Source: a virus
Lineage: Duplodnaviria; Caudoviricetes
IMG/VR virus record: IMGVR_UViG_3300048598_000163
Coordinates: 14,512 to 78,511 of that record
Length of the DNA: 64,000 bases
Reading direction: 5' to 3' (one strand)
Shown here piece after piece: positions 21,616 to 48,736 of the stretch. The stretch's first letter is position 1, and each line of letters starts with the position of its first letter. The position numbers and the translations under genes were made by a program. The notes below the pieces were generated by a model. That model made no database searches and was not told the DNA's origin. It saw only the letters and a program-made list of their open reading frames with translations.

Positions 21616-22756
21616 TCTGATTGATCCTCCTACCTTCCTTGAAAGCAGCAAAGAGTTTCAGAACAGCACGCCTTGGCATCCGCTGATCCTCGCTGGTTCG
21701 AAGGCTCGGCAGATTTTTTATTATCGTGTATGTAGGCAATGCCTTGTAGAGAATCGAATAGGCTGTTTCAGCCGCCGGCGGATTCGTGATCCATACAACC
21801 TTATTTGTCCCGGCAAGAATAAAATCGATTTCGGGATAATACTCCTTTACCGTAGTAAATATGCGCTCTATCGATTCGACGAAAAAGGCACTGATGGTAT
21901 CTTCCGCCCCTTCTTTTCTGATCAGAACCTCTTTTGCAAGAGTGCTTCCTGACAGGACGGTAATTACGTCTCCCTCTCCTATGTCGCAGCAGTAAGGAGC
22001 CGTTAAGACAGCATCGCCACCCGCCGTTTCGATCATCTTTGATTCAACGTCGTTAAAGCCCTGGGAAAGAATTACAAATTTATTCGGCTCTAACCATTTC
22101 ACGTCGGTTGCCTTCAGGGATCCTTTTTGAACAATTTCAGCACCGGTTAACGAATCTGTCAGCCTAAGCCGAACCATATCCATTCGATATTCAAGAACCT
22201 CGAATTCCTTTTCGTCGTCCTTCACCGTGCATGACAGAATATCGCCCGGAGCAGTATATACGACGGATTGGATCGTAGAGGATTCAGAACGGCACCCTGG
22301 TACCCGAAAGAAACCGCCTCCCAAGGAAACGAGCGCAACGGAATCGATCTTATTTTCCCTGGAATACGATGTTTCGACGGCAACATAATCGTCCGCCCCG
22401 GTCGCCTTTTCTCCGAATTTGAGATACCTCCCGTATTTCGTGAAAGGTATTGAAACCCCGTTGTAATAAACAGCTTTAACGTCTCCATCCGAGCGCTCGG
22501 ATAGAACAACTGCACCGTCTTTGTCCACGGGTAGCGTGTTTATTCTTCGTTCTTCCTTTTGGTGGCTGTAAATAATCCCAGTTCCGCCACAAAGAGGGCA
22601 TCGAATATCAGGTTGATTCCCGTCGCCGGTTACACACGAGCATTTCATTGACGTTCTCCATCGGACATATTGCCCATGGCGTTCAATCAGCGCTTCATAG
22701 TTTTCCTTTCCGAGCTTGAGTTTTACGGGTGAATCAAAACCGAGGCCGTATGTCAT
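21608..22756 (-). CDS. Head-closure / neck protein with Cys motif
   Basis: LIERHGQYVRW, CSC..RCPLCGGTG. Confidence 0.65.
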   Translation of the reverse strand: MTYGLGFDSPVKLKLGKENYEALIERHGQYVRWRTSMKCSCVTGDGNQPDIRCPLCGGTGIIYSHQKEERRINTLPVDKDGAVVLSERSDGDVKAVYYNGVSIPFTKYGRYLKFGEKATGADDYVAVETSYSRENKIDSVALVSLGGGFFRVPGCRSESSTIQSVVYTAPGDILSCTVKDDEKEFEVLEYRMDMVRLRLTDSLTGAEIVQKGSLKATDVKWLEPNKFVILSQGFNDVESKMIETAGGDAVLTAPYCCDIGEGDVITVLSGSTLAKEVLIRKEGAEDTISAFFVESIERIFTTVKEYYPEIDFILAGTNKVVWITNPPAAETAYSILYKALPTYTIIKNLPSLRTSEDQRMPRRAVLKLFAAFKEGRRINQND

Positions 22757-23364
22757 ACCGCGATCTCCTCGTGCAGGAAAGGTCTTGCTTCGTTCCCGAT
22801 TCTTACAACCGGGAAGCCCCTCTTTGAAAAACCTTCAACGACTCCGATCTTTTTTCCGACGCTCACCGAAACTCCTTTCTTGAGCTTGAGCATGGCGTTT
22901 TTCCGGGTGCTGATAGATGAAACAAGGCGATCTGTTTTCTCGTTGTACTCTTTCTGCAAATCGCTTGCCTGTTCTGGCTTATCGGCCATAAGTTTGAGGT
23001 ACCATGCTGTTTGAAAATCAGCTTCGATGTCCTTGTCCCGCGTGTCACGGTCGAATTTATAGTTCTGGTATTTCGTTTCAATGCGCTGCGCAAGCGCCGG
23101 ATCATACATCGCGAATTTGGATACCAGCGGCTTGATCTGATAATCTACCGAACCCCGGTCAAGGTGATCGAAATACCCACGGTTATCACTCCGCTGTTTC
23201 ATATCGTCGTTGGAAAATAAATCAACCTGCCCTTTGTTTTTGCCACTGTTTCGATCTTCCGGGGATACCCAATAAGTCATCTCGCGCCCATCGGCGCGAA
23301 CCTTTTTTTCAGGTATGAGTTTCCCATAGTCTTTCGCTTTCAGAAGAAGTACTGGCGCGTTCAT
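22753..23364 (-). CDS. Hypothetical protein carrying a short variant of the head-cargo tag
   Basis: LLLKA..GKLIPEKKVRADGREMTYWVSP, GQVDLF, C-terminal SH3/KOW-like beta region. Confidence 0.7.
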   Translation of the reverse strand: MNAPVLLLKAKDYGKLIPEKKVRADGREMTYWVSPEDRNSGKNKGQVDLFSNDDMKQRSDNRGYFDHLDRGSVDYQIKPLVSKFAMYDPALAQRIETKYQNYKFDRDTRDKDIEADFQTAWYLKLMADKPEQASDLQKEYNEKTDRLVSSISTRKNAMLKLKKGVSVSVGKKIGVVEGFSKRGFPVVRIGNEARPFLHEEIAV

Positions 23365-24266
23365 GAGGCACGCTCCATGAACTCTTTATCCGTCATGGTA
23401 CCTTTATGGAGGTTGCACGACGGGCAGCTTATCGCGAGGTTATTCTTTTCGTTTTTCCCGCCACGGATAAGAGGAATCTTGTGCTCAAGGTGGTATTTTT
23501 CTTGAATTGGGTCTTTGCAGTAAACGCATGTGAGGGCGCCGTACAGCACAATATTCTCGCTCTCGACTTCCTGTACTACTTTTGAAGAGAGTCTACCGGC
23601 GTTTCGTTCGAGAACACGCCTGTTGGCACTTTTCTGTTTGGTGTGACGCCTACCCTTTTCGGTTTTATACCAGTTTTTTACGAGCTGGGAGTGATGCTCC
23701 TTATGCCTCTCAACCCAGTCTTTTTGTCCGGCTTTTACTTTTTCCGGATTCTGTATAGCCCAACCAGAACGATATCCGTCATATCGTTTTTTGGTTTCGG
23801 GGTCACTCATATATTTCGCCCATCTTTTTTTATAGATATCAGGATCTGCGGTGTATTCTCTCTTACGTTTTTCGTTTCTACATTTAACGCAATTTTCAGT
23901 ATATCCATCGAGTGTTTGTTTACTTTTATAGAAATTGCAAATTGGTAAAACCTGTTTGCAGGAACAGCACCTTTTCTCCGTTATTTCAGGCTTTTCCATT
24001 TGCTTTACAGTATGAATATACTCTTTGTGCCTAATACTCGCGCAAGAACGGCAGACGGTGTTTCTTCCATCTTTATTGGCAATATTCTTGGTGAATTCCT
24101 CGATAGGCTTTTCAACACCACATTTCCCGCAAACCTTACTCGCGGGAACGTCTTTCTTTATCTTGAGACAGTCCTTGCACGGCTGACGTATTCCGCATCT
24201 GTTGCGCGAGTCAGAGAAAAATGCAAACTTTTCTTTTTCAGCTCCACAGCACGTACACACTGCCAT
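23361..24266 (-). CDS. HNH homing endonuclease with three Cys4 repeats
   Basis: Three CxxC-x~22-CxxC repeats; C-terminal CVYC..HLEHKIPLIRGG.N..NLAISCPSCNLHK. Confidence 0.9.
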   Translation of the reverse strand: MAVCTCCGAEKEKFAFFSDSRNRCGIRQPCKDCLKIKKDVPASKVCGKCGVEKPIEEFTKNIANKDGRNTVCRSCASIRHKEYIHTVKQMEKPEITEKRCCSCKQVLPICNFYKSKQTLDGYTENCVKCRNEKRKREYTADPDIYKKRWAKYMSDPETKKRYDGYRSGWAIQNPEKVKAGQKDWVERHKEHHSQLVKNWYKTEKGRRHTKQKSANRRVLERNAGRLSSKVVQEVESENIVLYGALTCVYCKDPIQEKYHLEHKIPLIRGGKNEKNNLAISCPSCNLHKGTMTDKEFMERAS

Positions 24267-25387
24267 CAGATACTTCCTATGGTTATGTTTCCGAACTTAC
24301 TTCTATTCTCTTTGAGATAGGTCTGTATATCTTCCAGATATACTTTAATTCTTGCACCATACATTGCCGACGTCGCGCTTTGTGTGGAGCTAAATGATTC
24401 CGATACCCCGTCCAACGACAACGAACTTGAAGAGAATCCCGAAAGCAGTCCGTCGCCGATTATGTTCAGGAGCTTGCAGGCGGCCGCCTTCCCGATAATA
24501 TCCCGGAGGTCCGCGGGAACCATTCCGGAATTCTCGTATCCAGCTGTATAGTCAATTTTGTACCCATGAGGATAGTCGCCATTGCGGTAGCTCACGCCAA
24601 CCGCCATCGCGGCCGGAATGATGCGGATTTCTCCCGTGGCTCCGGCCCTCGGGAAAAAGCTGATAACGCCCTTTCGATGGTCGATTCTTGCCCACGATTC
24701 AAGGTCGATAATTTTCTGATCTGCCATTCCGTACAGTATGAAACTTTCGATCGATAAAATCGGCCGCTTCCGGAGCACAATACGCCCGGCGCGCTGCCAT
24801 TTGTCATGGCGATACGTGTACGGGTCTTCTGCTTCGTCGTAATCGACCCCTATCTTCCCTTCTTTCGGCTGGCACTTTATTACGGTTTTTGTGATCGTTA
24901 TTTTCAGAGCCCGGGCGATCTCGCTGACCGCGGACTGTATTTTCGCTTTTATTTGAGCATCGGAGAAGGTGTCTCCATTCGATGCTTTGAAATCGATACC
25001 CCAAAGATAGGTATACCGAAGATCGTCGGGGGTAAGGATATCTCCGAACCCGCCATCGGGGGCAGCATAATTGCCAAAAGTCCACCCGGTTTTCTCGGTG
25101 CCAATTCTTGACCAGTCGGAATAGGCATAATCAGAAAGAATGGTCGTCATTATTGCGTAGCGGTACTGGTAAATTCCTGCTTCAAGATCATAGTCCGTAA
25201 ACCTCACCGAAGGGACCAGCATTGCCGTTCCGCCATCGGTAAAAGACGTGCCGTCCCAGATCAGCCAATTTCCGCTCTCGCGCTTGCGTTCTATGCGGAA
25301 TCCGACAAAGCCGGTAGTCCCGGCGGCGGATTCGATAGTGAGAAGAATATCAGTATTGATTGAGACGGCACTTATTTTCATGGTCAA
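24266..25387 (-). CDS. Head-tail adaptor (neck) protein with N-terminal Fn3-like domain
   Basis: LTPDDLRYTYLWGID, YTAGY..VPADL..IGKAAA, SLSLDGVSESFSSTQSA..YGARI. Confidence 0.75.
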   Translation of the reverse strand: MTMKISAVSINTDILLTIESAAGTTGFVGFRIERKRESGNWLIWDGTSFTDGGTAMLVPSVRFTDYDLEAGIYQYRYAIMTTILSDYAYSDWSRIGTEKTGWTFGNYAAPDGGFGDILTPDDLRYTYLWGIDFKASNGDTFSDAQIKAKIQSAVSEIARALKITITKTVIKCQPKEGKIGVDYDEAEDPYTYRHDKWQRAGRIVLRKRPILSIESFILYGMADQKIIDLESWARIDHRKGVISFFPRAGATGEIRIIPAAMAVGVSYRNGDYPHGYKIDYTAGYENSGMVPADLRDIIGKAAACKLLNIIGDGLLSGFSSSSLSLDGVSESFSSTQSATSAMYGARIKVYLEDIQTYLKENRSKFGNITIGSI

Positions 25388-25785
25388 ACCTTCTCGTATC
25401 CGGGCACTTTCAGGAGCTGCTCGAGATCATCGGAGTCGGGTGTTGCAAGGCCGTCCGCGTCGAATTCAACGGGCTTCCCTGTGACAGCATAGACCGATTT
25501 CCCAGCCATTGCCACGTTGCGCACCTGTCCTGTTTTCTCGGATCCTTCGCCCTTGTTCTGAACAGTAGTGTCAGAAGATGCCTTCTGGGCATTGGCGGTT
25601 TCGACAGGTTCCGTCGTAGGGATATCGCCGACAGAGACCTTCTCGGCGGATTCACTGGCCGGCGGATTCTCATCAAGCTCGGAGGTATCCTCGGTAGATT
25701 CACTGGCCGCCGGCTGACTCTCGTCAGGTCTTGCGGTATCGACGGGTTCGGTTGTTTCAGCGTCAGTTTTTTTTGCTTTTGCCAT
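25384..25785 (-). CDS. Acidic low-complexity hypothetical protein
   Basis: E/S/T/P-rich N-terminus, C-terminal VEFDADGLAT. Confidence 0.65.
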   Translation of the reverse strand: MAKAKKTDAETTEPVDTARPDESQPAASESTEDTSELDENPPASESAEKVSVGDIPTTEPVETANAQKASSDTTVQNKGEGSEKTGQVRNVAMAGKSVYAVTGKPVEFDADGLATPDSDDLEQLLKVPGYEKV

Positions 25786-25800
25786 TTACGTGCTCCTTGA

Positions 25801-25986: not shown

Positions 25987-26010
25987 ACAACCTCTTCCAT
26001 AAAAGGAATA

Positions 26011-26032: not shown

Positions 26033-26040
26033 CAAGCGGA

Positions 26041-27456
26041 TTAGTTCAAGAACCCGTCGTTGGTGTATCCGATGTTCTTGACAACACCGTGATACCACGG
26101 GACCTTGACGTCCGGAGTACCGAAGAGAACGATCAGGAACGGGGTTACCGCGGCCCTGGTCGGGTACAGATCGAACTTCATCAGAGGAAGGAACTGGTCG
26201 AACTGCGCACTCGGCTCGATTGCATCGTGCGAGAGGTACAGAATCGAACCGGTACCAGGAAGATCGTCCTGCTGATCAAGGTGAGTCTTGGTTGCGGCAG
26301 ATCCGATACCAATACGAACCATCTCGCGCATATCGGTTCCGGATCCATCCTTCTTCGATCGGGTGATGATGTATCCGGACCCCTTTATTGTGCCGGGAGT
26401 GATCACGATCTTCACTTCCTGTCCGGCCGCTACGGCAACGGATGCGGCAGCAGCTCCCTCGGAAATACCGTATGCGTTTATCGCGTGGACGGCGTAAAAG
26501 TACGTTCCGGCTTCTGCGGTAACGAATCCAGGGCCACCGCCGGCAGTAAGGGTCTGTGCGGTAAGAGCAAAGGTAGGCGCAGAGGGGCGTTTATTCGCAT
26601 CACCGCTCGCGGAAATCTTTCCTTTGACGTGGAACATCTTGTCGGGTCCGGCTTCTTTACCAGCAATCTTGATGTCGCCGGAGAAGGTAGTCGGGTACTC
26701 GAGAACCACGCGGCCGCCCTTGGTGTCATTTTCTCCAAATCGAAGGCGATCCCTGGCGAGTTTCTGGAAGTCGGACGCGATAACGGACGGCATAAACGCA
26801 TGAGAGAGGCTTCCGCCGTTGTCAAACACCATCTGCGCGATGTTGTTGATGGATTCCTCGCCAGCCGCGTCGCTCATCTTCGCGCCACGAAGGTCTACGA
26901 GGTTGCGACGCGATGCGTTTGACACAACCTGCTTGAGCACGCTGTCAAACTGCTGCGGTACGACCTCGCTGTCGGCCTGGAACATACCGAACTCAAGTCC
27001 TTTGAGAACGGTGAGGGTTCCTGCCAGCTTTTCAGACGCCATCGCGTCTTCGAGGGTTTTTGCCACCTGCATCTGCAGCGTTACCTCGCGGTAGGTCTGC
27101 ATGAACTTCATGGGCTTGGTTACGCGCTCGATCGCCTGATCGGTGTCCCCGGCCTCACCGCCCTCGTCGGCGAAGATATTCATGTGCTCGCCGGCGTCGT
27201 TACGACGGGTGTACTCATGAACGGTCGAGCCGACTTTCTGGGTTTTGAGGAGATTGGTCAGCTTGAAGTCTTCCTGCTTCGCGGCCATAGCATTGACCAT
27301 GCTCATCTCGATATCCTCGGGCATGAGCGCACGGCCACCGGTAAACTGCGAGGAATCGGTTCCGGATCCAGCGGAGAGGGCTTTCTGGAGCTCTCCTTCG
27401 CTTACGGTTCCGAATACCGTGTCGCCAGCCCTTGTCGGGTTAAGGAAATCACTCAT
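26041..27456 (-). CDS. Major capsid protein
   Basis: 471 aa after the protease gene; N-terminal ELQKALSAG..TGGRAL..EDIE resembles processed Twort/A511-type capsids; GGAGGGAG RBS. Confidence 0.92.
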   Translation of the reverse strand: MSDFLNPTRAGDTVFGTVSEGELQKALSAGSGTDSSQFTGGRALMPEDIEMSMVNAMAAKQEDFKLTNLLKTQKVGSTVHEYTRRNDAGEHMNIFADEGGEAGDTDQAIERVTKPMKFMQTYREVTLQMQVAKTLEDAMASEKLAGTLTVLKGLEFGMFQADSEVVPQQFDSVLKQVVSNASRRNLVDLRGAKMSDAAGEESINNIAQMVFDNGGSLSHAFMPSVIASDFQKLARDRLRFGENDTKGGRVVLEYPTTFSGDIKIAGKEAGPDKMFHVKGKISASGDANKRPSAPTFALTAQTLTAGGGPGFVTAEAGTYFYAVHAINAYGISEGAAAASVAVAAGQEVKIVITPGTIKGSGYIITRSKKDGSGTDMREMVRIGIGSAATKTHLDQQDDLPGTGSILYLSHDAIEPSAQFDQFLPLMKFDLYPTRAAVTPFLIVLFGTPDVKVPWYHGVVKNIGYTNDGFLN

Positions 27457-27474
27457 TGGTGTCTCCCTCCTTTT

Positions 27475-28911
27475 TTATTTGAGCAGCTGAATCTGTTCAG
27501 CTGACAGCGGGAGCGACTTGTTGAGGCGTTCTTCGATAGCGCCCGCCTGCACAAGGTCCATTTTTCCGGATGCGATAAGCTCCTGGGATTTCTTCAGGAC
27601 TTCGGAACGGGTCATAACGACATCCTTGTCCTTGTCCTTGAAGCGAATCTGGGAATTCACGATGGCCTGACGCGGAGCGGGGGTGTCACCGATGGACTTC
27701 ACCATCTGGGCGGTCGCCAAGATTGCACCGCCCATGCTTTTCTGCAGAGAAACCATGCCGTTGACCTGCCGCTCGATCGCGGCCATTCTGTTGGAAATGC
27801 TCTTGGTGAGAGTGTCGAGGAACGGGGCGACATCGAGGAAATCCCCGGCGTTTTCGCGTACATCGTCATAAAGGGACTTTTCGAGGGTTTTATCCTTCGA
27901 TTTGTCTTTCTTTCCGGCGGGCTCACCCTCGCCGTTTTCGTCTTCCACGCCTTCGCCTTCGTCATTTTCGCCGGCACCGGTTTCGGGGTCTGCGGAAAGA
28001 CTCTGTTCGGGCGGGAAGTCGTTCATTCCTTCGCGGGCGGCTTCTTTGGGTTTCGCCTTAAGTGACTTTTCGAGAGACGCGGTCGTCTCGTCAAAAGCCT
28101 TCAACAGATTTGCGTCCATTGATACTTCCTCCTTCATCTTGTCTTTGTTTGCTATGATATTCCGCAGAATGTTGTCCGCCTCTTCAGGCGAACACCCGCG
28201 GTTTTTCAAGAATTGTTTTATGTCGTCCTCGTCCTTGAAGTCTTTATAGGCCATACCCATCACGACGGCGTATTGATCGGGCTTTCGGTCATGTTCGACA
28301 TCCTGCAGAATCATGGCACGGCCGCCGGTCATAGCCGACGAATCGGTACCAAGGCCGGCCTGCAACGACTTCACGAAGGCGGCACCGGACAGCGCAACCG
28401 GGTCAAGGGTTTGGTTTACCGGCTTGAAGGTAATAGCGATCTCGTCCCAGAGAACGGCCACGACGGCTTCGATCATCTTTCCGAGCTTCTGGCTGTAGGT
28501 TTTTTCCACTTGCGGCATTTTACCGCCAACGGATATATGAAGCGTTTTTGCGCCGGCTTTCAGTTTCTTGATGATTTCCTGGGCTGACTCAACGGTTGAA
28601 TAAAGCTTTCCTTTGACGAAAGTTCGATTTCCTTTGGTTCGCACTTCGAGCGGTTCCCCGATGATGTATTTCTCGGGATTCCAGTGCGGGTCAAGCGGAT
28701 CAGGCTTGAGGTGCTTGTGGTCGTATGACACAACCCCGTTCGCGAGGAAGTAGTCTTTCGATGCAATGAGCGCTTCCTGCAGAACTACCTGGCCATCAAA
28801 GTCAAGATTCTCATTGGACGCTTCTGCCTCGAAGATGACATTCCCGCTTTCATCGGTTTCGATCGATTTTGACAATCGGAGTTCAAGGTATATACGATCC
28901 TGATTTACCAT
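27475..28911 (-). CDS. Prohead protease fused to scaffold
   Basis: FEAEASNENLDFDGQVV, SYDH, FVKGKLY, LHISVGG (Ser), EIAITFKPVN, followed by an acidic/coiled scaffold region. Confidence 0.9.
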   Translation of the reverse strand: MVNQDRIYLELRLSKSIETDESGNVIFEAEASNENLDFDGQVVLQEALIASKDYFLANGVVSYDHKHLKPDPLDPHWNPEKYIIGEPLEVRTKGNRTFVKGKLYSTVESAQEIIKKLKAGAKTLHISVGGKMPQVEKTYSQKLGKMIEAVVAVLWDEIAITFKPVNQTLDPVALSGAAFVKSLQAGLGTDSSAMTGGRAMILQDVEHDRKPDQYAVVMGMAYKDFKDEDDIKQFLKNRGCSPEEADNILRNIIANKDKMKEEVSMDANLLKAFDETTASLEKSLKAKPKEAAREGMNDFPPEQSLSADPETGAGENDEGEGVEDENGEGEPAGKKDKSKDKTLEKSLYDDVRENAGDFLDVAPFLDTLTKSISNRMAAIERQVNGMVSLQKSMGGAILATAQMVKSIGDTPAPRQAIVNSQIRFKDKDKDVVMTRSEVLKKSQELIASGKMDLVQAGAIEERLNKSLPLSAEQIQLLK

Positions 28912-28933
28912 TTCGCCCTCATTCGCGGAAAAT

Positions 28934-29047: not shown

Positions 29048-29268
29048 CCGCCCGCGGCCTTTTTACCGCGTTGCAAGGCCATATACGCGGCTCTCGCGGC
29101 TTCATCGCCGCCCGCGGCCCGCCGCCGAAGGATTTCGATACGCGCTTGCGTACCCGTGAACGCGTGGCGCTTTCCGAAGGCTATTTCCTGATTCTTCTTT
29201 TGCGCTTCGTTCCGGCGAAGATTCACTCGGGCCATAAGGCTATATATTTCATCACGCTTGTCGTTCAT
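29044..29268 (-). CDS. Small basic hypothetical protein
   Basis: 74 aa, R/K/A-rich, AAGGAG RBS, ATGA overlap with the 1661-aa gene. Confidence 0.6.
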   Translation of the reverse strand: MNDKRDEIYSLMARVNLRRNEAQKKNQEIAFGKRHAFTGTQARIEILRRRAAGGDEAARAAYMALQRGKKAAGG

Positions 29269-34250: not shown

Positions 34251-34273
34251 TATTTATTGACTATTATTTGACG

Positions 34274-34825
34274 ATGAGTTATTTTTGGGTTATGGGAAGA
34301 AAAAGCACAGGCGGACACGTAAGATTTCTTGGTGGAAAAACTCAATATCGAATTATCCGTGTTAATGGCAAACAATGTCTTGAGCATCGTGTAGTTATGG
34401 AAGGAATTCTGGGTAGAAAACTTGCTCCTTCTGAAATCGTACATCATAAGGATGGAAACGGGCTTAACAACAGTCCGGATAACCTTGAGCTTTTTGCTTC
34501 GCAGGGAATACACCGAATAGAACATTCTGGTCCGTTTCACTGGAATCTTGACGAGGCTATAAAAATGCGCGGAGAAGGCGCAACGATCAGGGCTGTTGCC
34601 AAACATTTTTGCGTTACCGAATCGGCTATAAACAAGGCGCTGAAACGACGCGGTTATTCTACCAATACTCCCCGAAAACTTAGATTTGATAGAGCCTTTG
34701 CGATAAACGCTTTTCACCAAGATTTGCCGGTATCCCATATAGCGAAGCTTCTTGGCGTAGCAGCACCAAGTATTAAAAAAGCTCTGGAAAAAACGGGAGA
34801 CATTACTCCTAAACATTCGTCTTGA
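34274..34825 (+). CDS. HNH endonuclease with two C-terminal HTH domains (start uncertain: 34274 or 34292)
   Basis: LEHRVVME..EIVHHKDGNGLNNSPDNL; TIRAVAKHFCVTESAINKALK and VSHIAKLLGVAAPSIKKAL. Confidence 0.88.
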   Translation: MSYFWVMGRKSTGGHVRFLGGKTQYRIIRVNGKQCLEHRVVMEGILGRKLAPSEIVHHKDGNGLNNSPDNLELFASQGIHRIEHSGPFHWNLDEAIKMRGEGATIRAVAKHFCVTESAINKALKRRGYSTNTPRKLRFDRAFAINAFHQDLPVSHIAKLLGVAAPSIKKALEKTGDITPKHSS

Positions 34826-39894: not shown

Positions 39895-40281
39895 TTACAT
39901 ACCCGCGTTCTCGTCGAACAGGGTGTAGTCGTGATCAACTCCATCGTTATCGGTCCATTCGTGGTCGCTCGTGTGCGTCATCTGCCCCGAATGGTAATAC
40001 GCCCCGGCAAGAACGGAGCGGAAAAGATCACCATGCCAGGCATTTTCCCTCATCCACTCGTCGAAGTATGAACCCGCGAACCAGTCGCCGGGCTTTGCCG
40101 CGTATTTCTGAAGGGCTTCTTTCACAGCCCACCAGTAAACACCGAAGGTTTTATACAGGATAGGGTTGTCGCGGAGCAGCGGAGCGACAGCTTCGGCGTA
40201 TTTACTCAAATAGGCCTCGCCGCCTTCGGTTTCGAGATTTTCCACAAGGCCGTCGACAAATTCGTTATCGTAGTATCCCAT
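39895..40281 (-). CDS. Acidic/aromatic 128-aa protein (candidate immunity protein)
   Basis: YKTFGVYWWAVKEAL; TAGGAG RBS; between the DarB-like and Zeta-like genes. Confidence 0.65.
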   Translation of the reverse strand: MGYYDNEFVDGLVENLETEGGEAYLSKYAEAVAPLLRDNPILYKTFGVYWWAVKEALQKYAAKPGDWFAGSYFDEWMRENAWHGDLFRSVLAGAYYHSGQMTHTSDHEWTDNDGVDHDYTLFDENAGM

Positions 40282-43200
40282 ATTTCACGCTCCTATTGAC
40301 CATTATACCTATCTTCGGCACGCGGAAGCCATCGTATATGGATTTTTCCATCTTTTTCTTGCGATAAACCAACTCGTGGCTTCCGTGGGGGCCTACAGGT
40401 TCATGTTCAACCTCATAATCTGGATTATCCTCGATCTTGTGTTTCAGATCATATTCAGATAGCGATTCTCCCGTAGCCTTGTTTACTTCCCCAAGGATGG
40501 TCGATATCACCTTCCAGCTATTCGAGGCGTGAGCATCAACAACGCCAGACCCCTTCCAGGCACGGTATTCCTTCCGGCTGAAGTCCTGTATATGCCGAGT
40601 GGCGCCAGAATCGATATTCACGGGATCCTCGTCCTTGTGCCCGTACAGGTACGGCATCTTGTCCTTTTTCGCCATGGCCTCGTCGATTTCCTTGCGCTGC
40701 GCGGGATCGTATGGATTCAGGACCACCGTCTCCTTGGATATTCCGTTACCGTATGAGTTCTTTGCCTCGATCTTTACCGATCCATCAGGTTCCTTTACGA
40801 AATACGTTCCGGTGGCGGCCGCCTCGATGTACTTGCGATAATTATCCCGCTTAAAGTCACCGTCTTGCGCGACGAAGGAATCGGGCTTGTAGATCGCTGC
40901 CTGCTTCTCGATATCTGATGCAGTGGGCTTCTTCAGGTACGTCATGCCCTGCGTTCCGGTAGGAAAGTCTTTCCCTACGGTCCACTCGAGCATCTTCTCC
41001 TTGTGTGAATAATGATTCTCGAAGGAGTGGATAATCTCGAACGCGATTTCATTATTCTTGTGGTTTATCGCCCTGATCTTATACACGCCAAACCGATTAC
41101 AGAACACGTCGCCGGGCTGGTATACCTTCCGGTTCACCTTATCGTATATGAAGTCGGGATTTTTCGCGGAGATAATGTCGAGGTTCTTGAATTCCGGATT
41201 CGCCCGAAGGGATTCTTCGATGTTCTGGATCTTCCGGACACGATTCTGGTACTGGATCGTACCCTTGTCACCAGAATAACTCTTCACGGCACCGCGCATC
41301 ATGCTCAACGAAGCAAGAAGGTCGTGGACCTTGTTCTGATTCGTCTCCTTGATTGCCCCTTCCTTCTTCCGGTTCATCTCCGCGCGACGCTCGTTTGCCT
41401 TATCCTTGTCGCCCCATTCCTCGGTAAGCGCGAGCATGAGCTCGTCCGGATCGACATAGGAATCATCGTTCGGGTTTACGAACACGTTCGACTTGGTTTT
41501 CAGCAGCTGGTCGATCCAATTTGCCTTGCCCTGGACAAGCCCGACGCTGTAATTGTCGATCGTCCCGGCCGACATATACGTGTGCAAGGCTACCTGTCCC
41601 TGGGCATTTCCTTGTCGGTCGATACGGCCGTTTCTCTGGATGAAGTCCGACGGCCGGTAGGGGATGTCGAAATGGTGCAGCGCGGCGCTGTTCTTCTGCA
41701 GGTTGACGCCTTCGCCCATGGTCTGCGTCGTTCCGACAATAACCTTGTATTTCCCCTTGTTGTAGCCATCTATGGCCGCGGAGACCTCCCGGCCAACCGC
41801 CTCGTCCGACTTCTTTCCGCCGGCCTTGGTGACACCGTTCACCACGATAATGTCGGATTCCTTGAAGCCTTGGGCAATCAGCGACTTCTTGATCTTGTCG
41901 TGGAGATTGAAGGTCCCGTCGCCGGATACAACGCGATCGCAGAAAATCACCTGTCCGCCGCCGGTGGCGTTGTAGCTGTCGGCCGCGTTCCTGACGAGGG
42001 TTTCCAGCTTTTCGTTACGCCAGCCTTTGAACCGGACGGGATCGTACAGTTCGAGATCAAGGGAGGCCGTTCGCATCCGGGAATAGAAGGTCAGGTAGTT
42101 TTGGTGACTTTCCGCCCTGTCTTCCTTGCTCATGTTCTTGAACTTTTCCAGTTCCTCGGACAGGCTCTTCAGCTCGGCCGTCTGATCCGCCTGCATGGGT
42201 ATCACGTTCGGGTGATTGTCGGCTTTCGGTTTCTTCAGGCCGATCTTTGTCGGGTCGTTCTGAAGGTCGGTATACTTAAAAAACATATCCTGAAGGGTTC
42301 GGAGGTTCTTGAAGCCCTTGAGGACGTTACCTTCCTTTACCGATCCCGTAGACCAGTCGCACTTCTGCTCAACGCGTATATCCGCGAAGTTCTTGATAAA
42401 CCCGTCGATATTCTTGATGCCCAGCTTCGTGAGCTCCTCGGGGGCTACGTGCATGAGCATATTGTAATATTCAAGCGGCGAATTCGTGAGCGGCGTCGCC
42501 GTAAGGAAAAACACGTTCTTCCCGTCGTGGTTCCGCCTGATATACTCGTTTTTCTTGAACAGCGACATTGCGCGCTCTGACCGGCGCCCGTCGTTCAGGC
42601 CGGTTTCCCGGGAGAGTGACGAGGTGAACAGGTTCTTGTTCCGGTGTGCCTCATCCACGAAAATCGCGTCGACGCCCAGATCCTCGAAGTTGATGGTCTG
42701 GTTCGTCTTCCCGTTCTCGAGTTTCTTTTTCGCGCTTTCCTTTGCCGTTTCGTTCTTGCGCGCGGACTTCCCGGCGGTCTTTTCCATGGTCTGTTCCGCG
42801 ACGATCGAGCTGGTTATCGCCTCATCGTTCTCGGGGCGCAGCTGGATTTCCGATGCCGATGTTTCAGGTAGAATGATAACGTCATAGTCGCCATTGGCTA
42901 GATCCTGGTACATTTTGTACCGCTTCACCTGATTGCCGTATCCTTCGGTTTCCGGGTCCATGGCGCCGACTTTCAGCCCGGGCATGGCCTTCCCGATGTA
43001 CTTTACCCAATCCTTGACCTTATTGTTCGGCACTTGTAGCATCGGCCGCTTGATAAGCCCTTCCTGTCGAAGGAGGGCCATGAGCGCGATACCGGCATAC
43101 GTCTTTCCGAATCCGGTACCAAGGGCAGAGATACCCTTTCCGTTACGATAAAGGTGATGAATCGTCTGCCATTGCCACGGCTGAATGACAATATCCGGGT

Positions 43201-46200
43201 TCCATCCGTCTATCTTGATGGAATAGGTTTTCGTCGGCGCGCCGATCTCGCCGTTGAACATTTTGTTGTACAGGGTTTCAAGCTGCGCGCGAACGTCCGG
43301 CGTGGTCGCCACCCAATTTTTGAAGCTGTCATCGGCGCGCTGGTTGTACGCTGCGGTATCAATGCGCTGCGAGCGCTGTTTCTGCGAATTCAGGTAGTAG
43401 ACGGTCTCGTCGGCCTCTTCGTGCCAGTCCCCGTTCTCTCCGTCCCGGATGCCCCATTTCCCTTCTTCATTGCGACAGAAGAACTTTTCCGGGGTCTTAT
43501 AACGATAGAATCCGTTCCCACCAGTTCCCGGCCCGAATACATACCCGCGGCCGAGCCCATCATCGTCCTTTACCCACTTATCGATGATTTCTTCGGGAAT
43601 CCATGAGGATTGTGGCATATAATCGGCATCCTCAATCGGCACCCAGCCGGCGGCTTTTTCAAGCTCCGCGATACCGTGCTTCCATTTCGCGACCTCATCG
43701 TCCCATTGATGCCCACTCCGGGCACTAATCGCCTCCTGGAGCGCGTCGATTTTCTCCCATGCGTTGCCCGCTATAAAGTCCTCTCGAAGCTGGTAAACTC
43801 CTTCCGTGGTAAGGAATACGTCCAGGTTCGCTTTCATCTCCGCGAGGAGATCATCGATCCCGTTTGGAAAATACTGCGTTAATGATTCAGGCGTCGCGTC
43901 GATATGGTTGCGGCCGAGGGTCATCAGGGCGGTTATCGCCGGGTTGTGACCGTCCACAATGTCGATTTCCTTGTGGTAGATGTTCTGCATGGTGAGAACG
44001 TTATCGTCGATCTTCACGAGGCCTTCATAGACGCCCGCCAACGAGCGATTGGCGTTCAGGACGCGCTTTATATCCTTGTCGTCGTCAGGCGCGCTTCCGT
44101 AGGATTCCGTATAGAGCTGGATGAGCTCGCGGGTATTCGCCTGCAGATCGTCAACCGGTTCACCGTTTTGCATGGCGTCGCGTATCTGCTTCACCTTTGC
44201 GGCTATCGCTTTTACCTTCTCAACCTTTTCGGCGGCCTCTTCGTTCGACCCTATGACGCGCTCCCATCGATGGTTCGTGTTGAGCCGATACAGTTTCCCG
44301 TAGATGCTCTTGGTCATTCCGGGCGTCAGAGACTTTGCGGCAACCGCCTCAGCCTCTTCAGGGGTAAGAAGCGCGGTATCCTTCGATTCCTTCTTCGGCG
44401 CGGCGTCGGTCGTCATCGATCGCAACGTCTCGAGCTGCTGGATGCCGGCATCGGGTTCCGGGGTGAAGGTCGAAACCGCGTCGTCCATTCCCGAAAGGGT
44501 AAGATCCCCTGAAATAACGTCGCGGCCCCAGTTGCCGGCCCCTTCCTGCTTCTCGCCGAGGATATGCGCGGGCTTCGCGTCGTAATAGGATCCTTCGACC
44601 CAGCCTTCATTCCAGAATCCCGCTGCCTTCAGCCCGTCTTCATCGAGCTGTGCAAGCCTGTTCGCCACTTCGTCGGGGTATTTCCGGAAGAATAGAATAT
44701 CAGGCTGCACCTGTGTCTGGGTATGCTTGAACGATTTGTCCGGCAGGCGGACGGCGCCCATGAACTGCCCTTTCTTGAGCATATCGGCGCGCCAGTCGCG
44801 GTTTCCCTTCGCGTCCATGACCCCAGGATGCACGATCATGCCCATGGTTCCGCCCGCATTGAGCTTGTCCATGGACCGTGAGAGGAAATACCGGTCAAGG
44901 CTCTTTTCCTCGGGCATATCCATGAACGACGTGGCTATGGTGCGATCGCCAAACGGGGCGTTTCCGACTACATGATCGAATTTGCGGTCGTTCGTAAGAT
45001 TGAATTGCTCGAAGCTTCCGGTGGCGATGTCCGCCTCTCCCTGGAGAATAGAAGCGGCGGCGGCCGTGCGCGTATCGAGTTCAACGCCCTGCAACGACAT
45101 ATCGGAAGGCGCAACGTCAAAGAATACGCCGGTACCGCACGACGGCTCAAGGGCAGCCCCTCCGAGCTTGATAGGGGCAACCTTGGCGAGCATCTGCCAG
45201 GTCATCTTTGCTACAGGCGGAGAGGTATAGAAGTCATAGAGCACGCCGCGTTCATCGTCGGCCTGAATACCGCCGAATCCCGAGTATTTCCGGATTTTCT
45301 CCCGGTCTTCATCGGTCAGCTCATTGCGCGGCTTCAGGAGTAGGCCGGCAACTTCCTTGTTGAGCTCCGCGCGGGCCTTTGGATTAAGTCCTTTCCCGCT
45401 CGCCGCCCATGACCCGTAATCACGGAAAGGCGTATCGACAATCGACCGGCCGAGATCATGAATACCATCGACCGATTCGATAGAGCTCGATACCTCTTCC
45501 TTCCCGTTCCAGGTGAGCCCGGTCTCGAAAACCAATTCATCCTTGAGCTTGAAATGCCAGGCATTCGCCATATCAGGAACACCGTCGGTTATCGGGACGG
45601 CCTCAATAACGCCGTCCTGGCTGTTCAATTCCATCCAGTGGTCGCCGTTCGCATCGGCTACGATTGTTCTCGGGTGCCGATTTTCGCCATCAGTGTCGTA
45701 TATCCGGTCCTGTTTCTTCGGCGTGTTGTATGCGGCCGGTTGCAGCTCTTTTGCCACCTCGCGGTCGATCGGGTCAGGCTTTCGGTCTTCCCCGAGTCGT
45801 TCATGGATGAGCTTCTCCATCATCGACTCTGTTCCGGCCTTTCCGTTTTCATGCGCCTCGTCCCGGGCGTCCATGATTTCGGTCATGGTGCTGTTTGCGT
45901 TTATCATGGCGGCCTTGGGCGGCTTGTACCCGGCTTTCCTTCCAGCGAATTCGATCGTGTCTGGCATGGTCGGCTTGAAGAGGTCTCCAACATTGTATGG
46001 CGTCGCCTCGGTCACTTTCGTGAGCTCAAACACTCCCTTTCCCGCGTAGATTCCGCGCCACGGCCCCGCGATACCCTCGTCGCCCGCGTATATCCCGCCT
46101 ACCACGTATTCGGTCAGATTCTGCTTTTTGCCTGTATTGGGCACAGAAACTATCCCGAGTTTTGGTGCAGACACTTGCCCTGTATGGGCGTTGACGGGCA

Positions 46201-46492
46201 CCTGCCCGGGTGTTTCATTAACTTGGTTTACGTTATTGGTTTTCAGGCCCATTTTCGGGGCCTTTTTGACCGGTTCAGCGGCCACGGCCGGCGCGGAATC
46301 GTCCCCGAAAAGATCGAATTGAGCCGATGTTACCGCCCCTGCTTTCGCCTCATTGGGAAGAACCCACGCCTTTTTCTGAAAGGTAGTCCCGTCCTTGTTC
46401 GTAACGGTAATCATTTTCATGACAAGCTTCGGGCTGCGGGACTTCTCAAGGACCTGCCGTACAGGAAGAAAGAATCTGGTAAACGCGTTCAT
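40265..46492 (-). CDS. DarB-like tagged protein: N6-adenine methyltransferase + SNF2 helicase
   Basis: 2075 aa; LEPSCGTGVF, FDHVVGNAPF, ALGTGFGKT, FVDEAH, LTATP, QRNGRIDRQGN. Confidence 0.9.
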   Translation of the reverse strand: MNAFTRFFLPVRQVLEKSRSPKLVMKMITVTNKDGTTFQKKAWVLPNEAKAGAVTSAQFDLFGDDSAPAVAAEPVKKAPKMGLKTNNVNQVNETPGQVPVNAHTGQVSAPKLGIVSVPNTGKKQNLTEYVVGGIYAGDEGIAGPWRGIYAGKGVFELTKVTEATPYNVGDLFKPTMPDTIEFAGRKAGYKPPKAAMINANSTMTEIMDARDEAHENGKAGTESMMEKLIHERLGEDRKPDPIDREVAKELQPAAYNTPKKQDRIYDTDGENRHPRTIVADANGDHWMELNSQDGVIEAVPITDGVPDMANAWHFKLKDELVFETGLTWNGKEEVSSSIESVDGIHDLGRSIVDTPFRDYGSWAASGKGLNPKARAELNKEVAGLLLKPRNELTDEDREKIRKYSGFGGIQADDERGVLYDFYTSPPVAKMTWQMLAKVAPIKLGGAALEPSCGTGVFFDVAPSDMSLQGVELDTRTAAAASILQGEADIATGSFEQFNLTNDRKFDHVVGNAPFGDRTIATSFMDMPEEKSLDRYFLSRSMDKLNAGGTMGMIVHPGVMDAKGNRDWRADMLKKGQFMGAVRLPDKSFKHTQTQVQPDILFFRKYPDEVANRLAQLDEDGLKAAGFWNEGWVEGSYYDAKPAHILGEKQEGAGNWGRDVISGDLTLSGMDDAVSTFTPEPDAGIQQLETLRSMTTDAAPKKESKDTALLTPEEAEAVAAKSLTPGMTKSIYGKLYRLNTNHRWERVIGSNEEAAEKVEKVKAIAAKVKQIRDAMQNGEPVDDLQANTRELIQLYTESYGSAPDDDKDIKRVLNANRSLAGVYEGLVKIDDNVLTMQNIYHKEIDIVDGHNPAITALMTLGRNHIDATPESLTQYFPNGIDDLLAEMKANLDVFLTTEGVYQLREDFIAGNAWEKIDALQEAISARSGHQWDDEVAKWKHGIAELEKAAGWVPIEDADYMPQSSWIPEEIIDKWVKDDDGLGRGYVFGPGTGGNGFYRYKTPEKFFCRNEEGKWGIRDGENGDWHEEADETVYYLNSQKQRSQRIDTAAYNQRADDSFKNWVATTPDVRAQLETLYNKMFNGEIGAPTKTYSIKIDGWNPDIVIQPWQWQTIHHLYRNGKGISALGTGFGKTYAGIALMALLRQEGLIKRPMLQVPNNKVKDWVKYIGKAMPGLKVGAMDPETEGYGNQVKRYKMYQDLANGDYDVIILPETSASEIQLRPENDEAITSSIVAEQTMEKTAGKSARKNETAKESAKKKLENGKTNQTINFEDLGVDAIFVDEAHRNKNLFTSSLSRETGLNDGRRSERAMSLFKKNEYIRRNHDGKNVFFLTATPLTNSPLEYYNMLMHVAPEELTKLGIKNIDGFIKNFADIRVEQKCDWSTGSVKEGNVLKGFKNLRTLQDMFFKYTDLQNDPTKIGLKKPKADNHPNVIPMQADQTAELKSLSEELEKFKNMSKEDRAESHQNYLTFYSRMRTASLDLELYDPVRFKGWRNEKLETLVRNAADSYNATGGGQVIFCDRVVSGDGTFNLHDKIKKSLIAQGFKESDIIVVNGVTKAGGKKSDEAVGREVSAAIDGYNKGKYKVIVGTTQTMGEGVNLQKNSAALHHFDIPYRPSDFIQRNGRIDRQGNAQGQVALHTYMSAGTIDNYSVGLVQGKANWIDQLLKTKSNVFVNPNDDSYVDPDELMLALTEEWGDKDKANERRAEMNRKKEGAIKETNQNKVHDLLASLSMMRGAVKSYSGDKGTIQYQNRVRKIQNIEESLRANPEFKNLDIISAKNPDFIYDKVNRKVYQPGDVFCNRFGVYKIRAINHKNNEIAFEIIHSFENHYSHKEKMLEWTVGKDFPTGTQGMTYLKKPTASDIEKQAAIYKPDSFVAQDGDFKRDNYRKYIEAAATGTYFVKEPDGSVKIEAKNSYGNGISKETVVLNPYDPAQRKEIDEAMAKKDKMPYLYGHKDEDPVNIDSGATRHIQDFSRKEYRAWKGSGVVDAHASNSWKVISTILGEVNKATGESLSEYDLKHKIEDNPDYEVEHEPVGPHGSHELVYRKKKMEKSIYDGFRVPKIGIMVNRSVKYGILR

Positions 46493-47778
46493 TTAGATAC
46501 CTCCACGTTGTAAATCTCATTGATGCGGTCAAGATAGCCGGGCGTTGAGTCGTTCAACTTGCGCGTGCCCTTGGACCGGAATTCCGCTTCCGCCTGCTTG
46601 CAGGCCTTCGCCCACGCTTCCTCGCGATCCTTCATCTTGGCAAGCGCGGCGTTCACGGCGTCGTCTTTTTTCCCGGGCGGCAGCCATTTCGTCCATATAC
46701 CGCGGCAATACGGGTGCTGGCTTCCCGCCGCTACCCATTCCTCTGACGCTTTCATGCCTACGCGGCTCTTTCCTTCCCATATCGCTATTTTCGCGTAAGG
46801 GTCGTCTATCTTCTCGTCGTCGAGCGGCACGTCAGACCAGCGAGCCACAAGCCCGTTGATCTTTTTGCAGTGCGCGCAGGTCACGCCGTCGATTATTTCC
46901 ATTCTCTGAAAGTAAAGCGGGGCCCCGTCCGGGGTGATCGAGCGCTCCGACACCATCATGGCGTTATTCATTGCGTCATTGGTCTCGGTTTCTACTATCC
47001 GCTTCCAGTCACGATTCAGGTCACCGAATTTGTCGAACAGATCCTGCGCTATCTCGCCTTTCGTTTTCCGTTCTTTGATTCCGTTCAGGAAAACCTTCTT
47101 GATGGCCCCCCTGGTTTCATCGGTCACCTTCGTGATGTGTTCCGCGCACAATTCCTGGGCTACGGCCATTCGGTCCATTTCTTCGTCGGCAACCTTGAAG
47201 AGCTTCCGGTAGTTTTCCTCGCCCGAGAACTCGCCGGCCTTCCATTTCTGGTATTCAAGCTCTTCGTACCGGGCCTGCCGGACGGCATCCCATGTGTTGT
47301 ACTTGAGCATCCGGTCGAGAACCTTTCCGAGAGCCGAAGAATCGAGAACGATCCGGTCACTGGCATTGGCGACCTTCCGGTTCAAGAAATCCTCAACGGC
47401 CTTTATGAAGTCCTTCCACTGTTTCCGCGTGATTGGCTTACCGGTTTCAGGCGCATAGAGAATTTTCCCTTTATAGATGAGCGGATCGGAGCCGCGCGCC
47501 TTGCTGAATGTCGTCACCCTTGGGAGGTCGAACGTATTGCAGCACGTATTGTAGATGAGGTCGAGCAGCCCCGCATAGAAATAGATCCACTGATTCACGA
47601 GGTCTTCGTATGCCTGGAAAGGAAACTTCTCGCCGTTCTCCTTGTCGGGGTCTTTGCGGCGCAGGGTAACAGGCAGATCGAGCGCTTTCGCGAGTGCATC
47701 GGAAGCAGCAAGAAACTTCTCTTTCCTGTTCGCTTCCGTGATTGCTGTCACCGTTATCTTTATATCCTTCATTACCAC
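46489..47778 (-). CDS. MuF / SPP1 gp7-like head morphogenesis protein
   Basis: WKRIVETE, VTCAHC, QHPYCRG; next to the portal. Confidence 0.85.
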   Translation of the reverse strand: MVMKDIKITVTAITEANRKEKFLAASDALAKALDLPVTLRRKDPDKENGEKFPFQAYEDLVNQWIYFYAGLLDLIYNTCCNTFDLPRVTTFSKARGSDPLIYKGKILYAPETGKPITRKQWKDFIKAVEDFLNRKVANASDRIVLDSSALGKVLDRMLKYNTWDAVRQARYEELEYQKWKAGEFSGEENYRKLFKVADEEMDRMAVAQELCAEHITKVTDETRGAIKKVFLNGIKERKTKGEIAQDLFDKFGDLNRDWKRIVETETNDAMNNAMMVSERSITPDGAPLYFQRMEIIDGVTCAHCKKINGLVARWSDVPLDDEKIDDPYAKIAIWEGKSRVGMKASEEWVAAGSQHPYCRGIWTKWLPPGKKDDAVNAALAKMKDREEAWAKACKQAEAEFRSKGTRKLNDSTPGYLDRINEIYNVEVSK

Positions 47779-47779
47779 G

Positions 47780-48736
47780 TTACCGCCCCAGCTTCAGATT
47801 CCGAATAAAAAGGCCGATTGATTTTTTCAGCGGCTTTTTGTCTGAAAATGCCTCCATCTTTGCAACGAGGGCTTTGGTCTTTTCAGGATCGTCGGTATTG
47901 ACCATGAACTCCCACTTATCGCATCCCGGCTTCTTCACTTCGAGCGAAACGCCATTCGCGCGCCAAAGGGGCTCATGCCCTCCGTTTAACGCGTGCTCAT
48001 CGCGTGAGCCACGCGTGCCCTTCGCGTGAAATACTTCATCTATCGCATTGGCAACGGCGTACGTGTCAGGGTACTTACCGCCGTGCAGCTTGTGGTTTTT
48101 CATCATGGAGAACGCTTCACGTACTTCATACAAGGCGCTCGTGGTGTCTATTGCTCTTTTCTCAATCGCGCTTGCCAGGTCGTATGTCGTTTTGAACAGG
48201 TCCCCGTGATAGGTGAAGTTCCGGACTTCGTTCAGGGCTGAATATGCGTCCTTGAGGATTTCCGGCCCTTTGATACGACCGCGCGGGTCTCCGGGTGATT
48301 TACCGTCGCCGCCCGTGCTGGCCGCCGGTTCATCACTATTCTCGAAAATGTTCTTGTCCCGACCGCCCTGAACGCTCGCCGCTATCTGCGCGGCCGTGGG
48401 CAATTCCTTTCCCGCCTGCGTCCCCCATTCAACCGTACCGTTTTCATCCTCGAGATATACAAAACCGTCACGCAGCTTGACCGAGAGGTCTTTGCCGTCG
48501 AGCGTTATCTTGTCGCCGTTCTTTACCGGCCGAGAGGCGACTTGTTTTGCTCCAACCTCTTCCATATCGAAAAGAGACCCTTGCGGAGTCCCTTCAGTCT
48601 TTTTCTCTTCAGGATCGACCCAGAAGGTCATCTGGAACGCCTTTCCGCCACGGGTAACGGTTCTCTTTACCGGAACCAATCGGCCGCCCTTTTGAGACTT
48701 TTCCAACACGTCGCTCTTGATCTGAACTACCAGCAT
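47780..48736 (-). CDS. Tagged hypothetical protein
   Basis: VLEKS..GRLVPVKRTVTRGGKAFQMTFWVDP, QGSLF, C-terminal LKKS; start moved to ATG 48736 (GGGAGG RBS). Confidence 0.75.
   Translation of the reverse strand: MLVVQIKSDVLEKSQKGGRLVPVKRTVTRGGKAFQMTFWVDPEEKKTEGTPQGSLFDMEEVGAKQVASRPVKNGDKITLDGKDLSVKLRDGFVYLEDENGTVEWGTQAGKELPTAAQIAASVQGGRDKNIFENSDEPAASTGGDGKSPGDPRGRIKGPEILKDAYSALNEVRNFTYHGDLFKTTYDLASAIEKRAIDTTSALYEVREAFSMMKNHKLHGGKYPDTYAVANAIDEVFHAKGTRGSRDEHALNGGHEPLWRANGVSLEVKKPGCDKWEFMVNTDDPEKTKALVAKMEAFSDKKPLKKSIGLFIRNLKLGR

Follow-up and report, generated by a model that had tools for sequence, protein, structure and literature searches.

The 64,000-nucleotide stretch analyzed here (the window) comprises bases 14512-78511 of a 78.5-kb IMG/VR virus record, IMGVR_UViG_3300048598_000163, rated about 90% complete, and carries nearly all of its genes on the minus strand. 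Six proteins encoded in its head region have unrelated payloads yet share a short peptide, which the initial annotation had described as a tag that addresses effectors to the capsid. We lean toward the view that this repeated peptide is a portable cassette of about 45-60 amino acids (aa) on proteins transported within the phage head, and the six-tag cassette, as judged from sequence, most likely marks effectors for capsid loading, trimming and injection. The six copies are located as follows, with a slash marking the predicted scissile bond.

35877-35993, minus strand: cassette 1, aa 1-39 of the ART-PolyVal and InPase protein; leader, L-E-K/A at aa 8-11, hairpin reaching W-V-R-P at aa 36-39
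37481-37651, minus strand: cassette 2, aa 1-57 of a 554-aa protein; leader, L-E-K/A, hairpin, Q-F-D-L-F at aa 53-57
39137-39268, minus strand: cassette 3, internal, aa 205-248 of the Zeta-toxin protein; M-Q-K/S at aa 217-220, hairpin ending at aa 248
46307-46492, minus strand: cassette 4, aa 1-62 of the DarB-like protein; L-E-K/S at aa 15-18, hairpin at aa 23-46 with a one-residue insertion, Q-F-D-L-F at aa 58-62
48569-48736, minus strand: cassette 5, aa 16-71 of a 333-aa open reading frame (ORF); L-E-K/S, hairpin, Q-G-S-L-F
23215-23364, minus strand: cassette 6, the short variant, aa 1-50 of a 203-aa protein; L-L-K/A at aa 7-10, shortened hairpin reaching W-V-S-P, Q-V-D-L-F at aa 46-50

The six copies and the anatomy of the cassette

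Exactly six copies were found in the window by both a regular expression and a profile, in the six ORFs first reported to carry them; this included the internal copy of the Zeta-toxin protein, which was confirmed at aa 217-248 (39137-39232). No seventh copy was detected in the whole 78.5-kb genome, and the six-frame profile search together with the whole-genome search agreed with the earlier impression that the tag is absent from the tail, lysis and early genes of this genome. When the six-copy profile was compared with the six-frame translation of the window, six matches of 60-77 bits were obtained, with the next best at 4.8 bits. This profile had been trained on its own targets, and two non-circular tests were added: (i) leave-one-out profiles regained five copies at E-values of 3e-17 to 6e-8, while the short variant (22753-23364) reached just 0.12; and (ii) an independent profile of 133 tags from other genomes, with close relatives of the window excluded, recovered all six at E-values of 2.5e-22 to 4.3e-8, with the next best at 0.32. 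Because the independent profile recovers it, the short variant is, on its sequence, a genuine but divergent member of the set, and it is conserved in orthologues from two related loci (L018 and L023). At the DNA level the six copies were pairwise 44-63% identical, and the third codon positions under identical residues agreed in only about 40% of cases, which is close to random. With the DNA diverged, the synonymous positions near saturation and the peptide kept, conservation acts on the peptide, and the sequences point to old divergence under selection on the peptide, as had been suspected. A DNA-level joint or a recent duplication is ruled out by the synonymous divergence.

Two of the tagged proteins required closer annotation. 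The 333-aa ORF likely starts at M16 (48736; bases 48737-48781 would lie outside the gene), since both the homologues in databases and the ESM Atlas entry start at that residue; this favors the start given in the initial annotation and leaves a 10-aa leader ahead of L-E-K-S. The same ORF matched phrog_1917 ('virion structural protein'), a label not traceable to an experiment. The 554-aa protein (35987-37651) had been called LPD1-like, a label that is supported just indirectly. It showed full-length homology to the LPD1-bearing end of a 1502-aa polyvalent protein (P0001), although no Pfam family was found in the 554-aa protein itself. An H-E-W-A-H sequence, a metallopeptidase-like motif of the HExxH type, was observed in the part homologous to the LPD1-bearing end.

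The six-tag profile was used to search 1.84 billion cluster representatives, of which 289 proteins matched at an E-value ≤ 1e-3 and 38 at ≤ 1e-10. When 173 instances taken from the 150 top-ranking database proteins were aligned, the cassette was defined as, in order, a leader, the motif [LMIF]-x-K/[SA], 5-7 residues, a basic two-stranded beta-hairpin with the consensus [KR]-L-V-x-K-x3-V-x-R-x-G-K-x-F-x4-W-V-x-P and, in about one third of the copies, Q-x-D-L-F. The most conserved columns were the P1 lysine, the L-V that opens the hairpin, V-x-R-x-G and W-V-x-P. The leader was mostly hydrophobic, with a median length of 13 and a mode of 10 residues to the P1 lysine, and was poorly conserved, whereas the hairpin was the best-conserved part. 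The AlphaFold2 (AF2) model of the DarB-like N-terminus, built on a 73-row alignment, contained a two-stranded hairpin at aa 24-31/37-44 (predicted local distance difference test score [pLDDT] 86-91), with the leader and the stretch downstream of the hairpin disordered (pLDDT 54-63). An autonomous hairpin with disordered flanks, as modeled here, would be typical of a docking element. The hairpin copies began ≤ 35 aa from the N-terminus in 100 of the 173 instances, and the others were located at junctions, with up to three per protein. A Phi-x-K-[SAG] site (Phi, hydrophobic) lay ≤ 14 aa upstream of the hairpin in 147 of 173 tags, compared with 8% of random windows, and the distance from P1' to the hairpin was sharply peaked at six residues (80/147), both counts being favored by the L-E-K-A columns that the search profile itself held. 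This distance was 5-7 residues in the six window copies. For 28 of 69 internal copies, a second site was present 10-32 aa upstream.

The pentapeptide Q-x-x-[LMIF]-F was detected 7-12 aa past W-V-x-P in 38 of 169 tags, and a hexapeptide form in 15 more, against a background of 1-2%. Four of the six window tags carry it as Q-x-[DS]-L-F (minus strand 23215-23229, 37481-37495, 46307-46321 and 48569-48583), and the stretch falls in the region that is disordered in the AF2 model. The Q-x-D-L-F pattern equals the bacterial beta-clamp-binding consensus (Q-L-[SD]-L-F type), which makes clamp binding a candidate function. The tag was not recognized as a named domain, in agreement with the initial annotation: Pfam returned nothing relevant at E ≤ 10, either for the tags or for five tagged homologues; no NCBIfam model covers the tag; there was no match among the PDB sequences; ESM Atlas gave only meaningless hairpin overlaps; and the only PHROG families that match are those containing tagged proteins. 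None of the Pfam LPD models, which do not include all 40 LPDs, matched the tags at E ≤ 10.

Genomic context, payloads and carriers

The gene order across the region, taken 5' to 3' along the minus strand and beginning with the large terminase gene, is listed below.

50543-52147, minus strand: large terminase
48756-50546, minus strand: portal, at the upstream edge of the cargo block
47780-48781, minus strand: tagged protein of 318/333 aa, matching phrog_1917
46489-47778, minus strand: MuF-like minor head protein, with a conserved L-A-K/A at aa 29-32
40265-46492, minus strand: tagged DarB-like methylase-helicase (N6_Mtase, SNF2, Helicase_C)
39895-40281, minus strand: Ulx-like protein (phrog_1629, E-value 1e-13), untagged, directly downstream of the DarB-like gene
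37982-39880, minus strand: protein running from DUF5661 to Zeta toxin, with the tag internal
35987-37651, minus strand: tagged 554-aa HExxH/LPD1-like protein
34809-35993, minus strand: tagged ART-PolyVal and InPase protein
29265-34250, minus strand: untagged 1661-aa SNF2-type helicase
27475-28911, minus strand: prohead protease-scaffold fusion, 478 aa
26041-27456, minus strand: major capsid protein of the SU10/SPO1 type, with L-Q-K/A at aa 23-26 (27379-27390)
24266-25387, minus strand: adaptor-like protein
23361-24266, minus strand: HNH endonuclease
22753-23364, minus strand: tagged 203-aa protein with the short tag variant

Placement of the tagged genes was examined in nine related loci, and all tags were found within the head-module cargo block. 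In the spirochaete-type loci (L012, L016 and L021-L024), every tag lies between the portal/MuF/Ulx genes and the helicase, protease and capsid genes. The L018 locus, a prophage on a 3-Mb contig, has one tag between helicase and protease and a second in an orthologue of the window 203-aa protein. The gene for this orthologue lies with the head-completion genes that follow the capsid gene, an arrangement also seen in the window. Two further loci (L014 and L019) belong to another lineage, in which the protease and scaffold genes are separate, and carry one and four tagged genes, respectively, directly upstream of the portal gene. The link to head modules that the initial annotation had anticipated for profile hits was found on every informative contig, with tagged genes in the head module, adjoining portal/MuF and upstream of protease and capsid.

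Comparison of the same relatives revealed how payloads are exchanged. From residue 4 onward, the 554-aa protein can be aligned over its entire remaining length with P0001 aa 935-1495 (E-value 1e-108), so its N-terminus corresponds to the third internal tag of P0001. The window Zeta protein shares its N-terminal module and internal tag with P0001 aa 761-974, after which the payload differs, and the L021 Zeta protein begins at the window's internal cassette. Additionally, the 554-aa module is fused to InPase in L021, L022 and L024, and a three-tag chain is present in L023. These boundary matches indicate that fusion, fission and exchange occur at the cassette; sequence comparison places payload swaps, fusions and splits exactly at the tags. 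Across the 289 clusters, most tags were N-terminal, proteins of 1000-2200 aa held two or three, and the payloads came from about 30 unrelated families, including (i) InPase, DUF5661, LPD1, LPD3, MuF_C, ART-PolyVal, PARP-like ADP-ribosyltransferase (ART), Zeta toxin and the DarB dyad; and (ii) RelA/SpoT, NUDIX, RadC, ParB, HipA, SAM lyase, 2H phosphoesterase, DNA ligase and metallopeptidases. Together with the swaps at tags in close relatives, this breadth bears out the portability first claimed for the tag.

The tag was kept in Bacillus and Thermus phages and in prophages of spirochaete assemblies. The Bastille-group Bacillus phages examined carry one tag each, in a terminase-adjacent protein annotated 'virion structural protein'. 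Thermus phages Lalka27a and Lalka8 also carry one each, in the DarB-like protein, and a tag was detected in Lalka27b by tblastn. With a single tag as the query, no relative was found in viral contigs. The closest cultured capsid proteins, at ≤ 30% identity, were those of Bacillus/Listeria Herelleviridae, the Thermus Lalka phages and Pseudomonas phage Touem01. Close homologues of the protease-scaffold fusion (P0157, P0158, P0159, P0234, P0244 and L018) came from Rectinema, Rectinemataceae, Treponema and Spirochaetales assemblies, and one of these spirochaete-assembly homologues sits on a 3.0-Mb contig. As spirochaete assemblies hold these homologues, the host of the window's phage clade is probably a spirochaete.

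Two other features of the region were observed. The HNH gene (23361-24266) separates the adaptor-like and tagged 203-aa genes; because these flanking genes adjoin in L018 and L023, it looks, from gene order, like a mobile insertion. A spacer of about 560 bp (34251-34808) between the ART/InPase and helicase genes contains just odd-looking ORFs with no family match; it had no Rfam match and no tRNA, and the genes neighboring it abut in L012, L022 and L024. No RNA genes were detected in the window.

Predicted prohead protease sites and virion proteins

The Phi-x-K-[SA] motif of the cassette was also found in the proteins that build the head. In the window it is located at aa 23-26 of the capsid protein, and it occupies the same position, just ahead of the conserved mature start, in the capsid proteins of L012, L014, L016, L019 and Touem01. 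The scaffold half of the protease-scaffold fusion (27475-28911) contains eight [LMI]-x-K-[SA] sites at aa 269-463, and the scaffolds of those five relatives hold 7-16 copies each. The motif is likewise present near the N-termini of the MuF and portal proteins, and the untagged helicase has three copies within its first 65 aa. Overall, 11 of 14 head-module genes had it within the first 65 aa versus 4 of 53 other genes (Fisher P = 3e-7). Among 90 protease-scaffold homologues, 8.3 sites per scaffold half were counted versus 1.0 expected from shuffling, and around every scaffold lysine, P3 was enriched for M/L/F and P1' for S and A. The protease half itself had no match among PDB sequences; its AF2 model (aa 1-230, pLDDT 78.6) was closest to T4 gp21 (5jbl, E-value 3e-6, probability 1.0), which suggests that this half adopts the gp21 (assemblin) fold. 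Based on the motif in capsid and scaffold and on the gp21-type protease model, Phi-x-K-[SA] was read as a maturation cleavage site, and the sequences make it most likely the site of the prohead protease.

The initial annotation had combined a loading address with maturation cleavage. Predicted cleavage beside the tag is well supported by the motif shared with capsid and scaffold, while for the hairpin a role as loading address is something we infer. Since the predicted cut precedes the hairpin, the hairpin would remain on the mature protein. A further similarity was noted in the linker that follows the protease domain (28297-28371, aa 181-205), which repeats the post-cleavage N-terminal stretch of the capsid protein (27307-27384, aa 25-50). 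The two share K-[SA]-L-x-A-G-x-G-T-D ... T-G-G-R-A (BLASTP E-value 1e-6), and the linker version is retained in a consensus built from 50 protease homologues; judging by sequence, it may represent either mimicry of the capsid arm or a processing context common to both proteins.

Published virion data were available for Thermus phage Lalka27a. Its Gp2, a tag-bearing DarB homologue, was identified as a minor virion protein by sodium dodecyl sulfate-polyacrylamide gel electrophoresis and peptide mass fingerprinting (preprint 10.64898/2026.04.20.719267), and its 1715-aa helicase Lvh is likewise a virion protein (10.64898/2026.04.20.719267). The expectation that tagged proteins occur in virions thus holds for one tag-bearing homologue. 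The published accounts of Felix O1 and phiAGATE provided no usable processing or virion data, and no capsid-processing paper was found for A511. The untagged helicase of the window is homologous to the Lalka helicase (E-value about 1e-94). Its three Phi-x-K-[SA] sites are conserved in L012 and L016, and from these sites the untagged helicase probably enters the head via its own propeptide.

Proposed mechanism, alternatives and known systems

The explanation that we consider moderately probable as a whole is that the cassette docks the cargo, guides the cut and leaves the hairpin on the product. During procapsid assembly, the leader and hairpin would dock the cargo to the protease-scaffold core via strand addition, which would constitute loading. 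The near-fixed spacing would then set the scissile bond in the active site, and the protease would remove the leader; in the 1500-aa polyvalent proteins of relatives, it would also cut at each internal cassette to give separate enzymes. The sequences strongly support both of these cleavage steps. The hairpin would stay at each new N-terminus and, more speculatively, probably keep the enzyme bound to the DNA or to the inside of the capsid wall until the tagged enzymes are ejected, a last step that we also infer. Docking to the protease or scaffold is proposed because the hairpin is isolated, has disordered flanks and lies at a near-fixed distance from the scissile bond, and since the protease belongs to the core, binding it would amount to loading. 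A later role for the hairpin is suggested because it is retained, very basic, present once per released unit and often followed by a clamp-like motif.

Several observations weigh against this explanation. Cleavage and loading of the tagged proteins are both predictions, and the site and spacing counts are favored by the search profile, as stated above. The capsid and scaffold sites would be cut with no hairpin nearby, and therefore the hairpin is unnecessary for cleavage as such; one hairpin per released unit also fits a post-cleavage role better than a pure address. The tag is not the sole route into the head, given that a homologue of the untagged helicase is packaged. Furthermore, no tag was found in Touem01 although its capsid type and protease motif are the same, just one tag each is carried by Bacillus phage vB_BsuM-Goe3 (in gp045) and the Lalka phages, and the hairpin of the Lalka DarB protein is 75 aa from the nearest good site.

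Alternatively, the leader and cut site alone could form the loading signal, as a true counterpart of the T4 targeting sequence, and the retained hairpin, with Q-x-D-L-F where present, could act after injection by tethering the effector to the incoming DNA or to a factor of the host, for example the beta sliding clamp. We regard this as possible, though not probable. The hairpin is very basic and downstream of the cut, polyvalent proteins carry one per released unit, the clamp-type pattern follows 38 of 169 tags (15 more in the hexapeptide form) at a fixed offset and well above background, and the leader's modal length of 10 matches the T4 targeting sequence. However, the leader is weakly conserved and the hairpin is the best-conserved part, the narrow spread of site-to-hairpin distances points to a single partner that recognizes both, two thirds of the tags lack Q-x-D-L-F, and DNA or clamp binding is a prediction. 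A processing joint and nothing else, with the hairpin as an exosite that recruits the prohead protease to cut chains and with loading via MuF, portal or bulk co-assembly, appears to us rather improbable. Cassettes do occur at internal junctions, where 28 of the 69 internal copies have their second site, the site-to-hairpin spacing is fixed, and MuF and portal genes always adjoin. Yet most copies are N-terminal on single-payload proteins, where removal of a 7-16-aa leader separates nothing, and the capsid and scaffold sites need no exosite; moreover, as the protease is joined to the scaffold core by fusion or assembly, binding it would in practice load the cargo as well, and at this point the exosite reading shades into docking at the core.

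It is very improbable that the peptide arose as a side effect of recombination, serves as a conserved DNA joint for shuffling or reflects a chance resemblance, with no peptide function. Payloads are indeed shuffled at tags, but DNA identity of 44-63% with synonymous positions near saturation and the peptide kept, profile E-values down to 1e-22, conservation of the tag in Bacillus phages, Thermus phages and spirochaete-assembly prophages, and a confidently predicted hairpin all speak otherwise. Synonymous divergence and breadth of conservation in effect refute both the recombination and the chance variants. We also considered, as a doubtful extension of docking and trimming, a two-job cargo code in which the peptide would load any protein into an HK97-fold capsid via the protease-scaffold core and then, once the leader is clipped, the hairpin and the clamp-like Q-x-D-L-F would couple the injected enzyme to the entering DNA or the host sliding clamp.

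Capsid-borne, injected phage proteins are known for just a few model phages. If the docking, trimming and retention of tagged cargo is correct, the cassette would allow injected effectors to be predicted from metagenomes, among them anti-restriction enzymes, toxins, ADP-ribosyltransferases and alarmone enzymes, and it would suggest a compact tag by which foreign cargo could be packaged in SPO1-type heads. It would also give a concrete answer for how polyvalent proteins are processed, namely by the prohead protease at marked joints, instead of or besides a metallopeptidase domain, and portray effector sets as being reshuffled by exchange at a common joint. Under the two-job code, the proteins that uncultured phages inject would be predictable from sequence alone, and protein delivery would be a further use for the tag.

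Among known systems, encapsulin cargo-loading peptides offer a general parallel, in that a short conserved peptide directs unrelated cargo into an HK97-fold shell. The parallel is an analogy only, as the encapsulin peptides mostly occur at the C-terminus, lack an associated protease site and are unrelated in sequence to the tag. In SPN3US and phiKZ, propeptides of ejection proteins are removed by a gp21-like protease (PMC7411985, PMC10052503). The likeness to the window's phage lies in the many head-internal proteins with a simple consensus site at which a prohead protease trims them or is predicted to do so. A shared hairpin module that is retained and defined by sequence is not known from those phages.

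The payloads resemble those of the polyvalent proteins of phages and conjugative elements, which have been described as effector chains predicted to be injected with the DNA (Iyer, Burroughs, Anand, de Souza, Aravind 2017, PMC5512222). The repertoire is the same (ART-PolyVal, InPase, LPD1, Zeta, the DarB dyad, RelA/SpoT and ParB), as are the position next to portal/MuF and the predicted injection. In the window, ART is combined with InPase, DUF5661 with Zeta, and the domains of the DarB dyad with each other, and relatives have 1500-aa chains with three tags. Iyer et al. proposed that an embedded metallopeptidase domain cuts the chains, and the searched main text describes no junction tag and no prohead-protease rule (PMC5512222); the window joints differ in carrying a prohead protease motif and a conserved hairpin.

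The Dar proteins of phage P1 are a closer match. The N-terminal 30 aa of P1 DarB are a capsid targeting sequence, experimentally sufficient to load a reporter, and the P1 protease cuts the capsid protein at E120/S121 (PMC9024508; PMC12810830); the P1 authors detected no consensus common to the Dar proteins (PMC9024508). As in P1, a Ulx-like gene comes directly after the gene for a DarB-like methylase-helicase, a protein of about 2000 aa, and the Lalka27a DarB homologue is a virion protein. In contrast to the Dar proteins, the six window proteins share one consensus. Homology to the P1 DarB targeting sequence was rejected, as the P1 N-terminus has neither the hairpin nor Phi-x-K-[SA].

In T4, the targeting sequence of IPI-III and Alt is removed by gp21 (Mullaney and Black 1996, as summarized in PMC12991175 and PMC9024508), which cuts after I/L-x-E, chops the scaffold and removes the leaders of the internal proteins (PMC12991175, PMC9024508). 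The likenesses to the window's phage are (i) an N-terminal leader of about 10 aa that ends at the phage's own prohead protease consensus with a hydrophobic P3; (ii) a gp21-fold protease and a scaffold dense in sites of the same type; and (iii) a cargo of unrelated injected proteins that includes an ADP-ribosyltransferase. Counter to T4, the P1 position is lysine instead of glutamate; conservation centers on a 24-aa hairpin that begins 5-7 aa past the predicted cut and would thus be retained and not discarded; and the cassette recurs inside polyvalent proteins and spans distant phage groups, not one genus. The initial annotation had pictured a T4-like tag exposed by cleavage. The predicted cut site does adjoin the tag, but the conserved hairpin lies downstream and would be retained, and by analogy the likelier counterpart of the T4 targeting sequence is the 7-16-aa leader upstream of the cut. 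The cassette is thus a sequence-defined variant of the T4/P1 capsid-targeting principle and is new in sequence.

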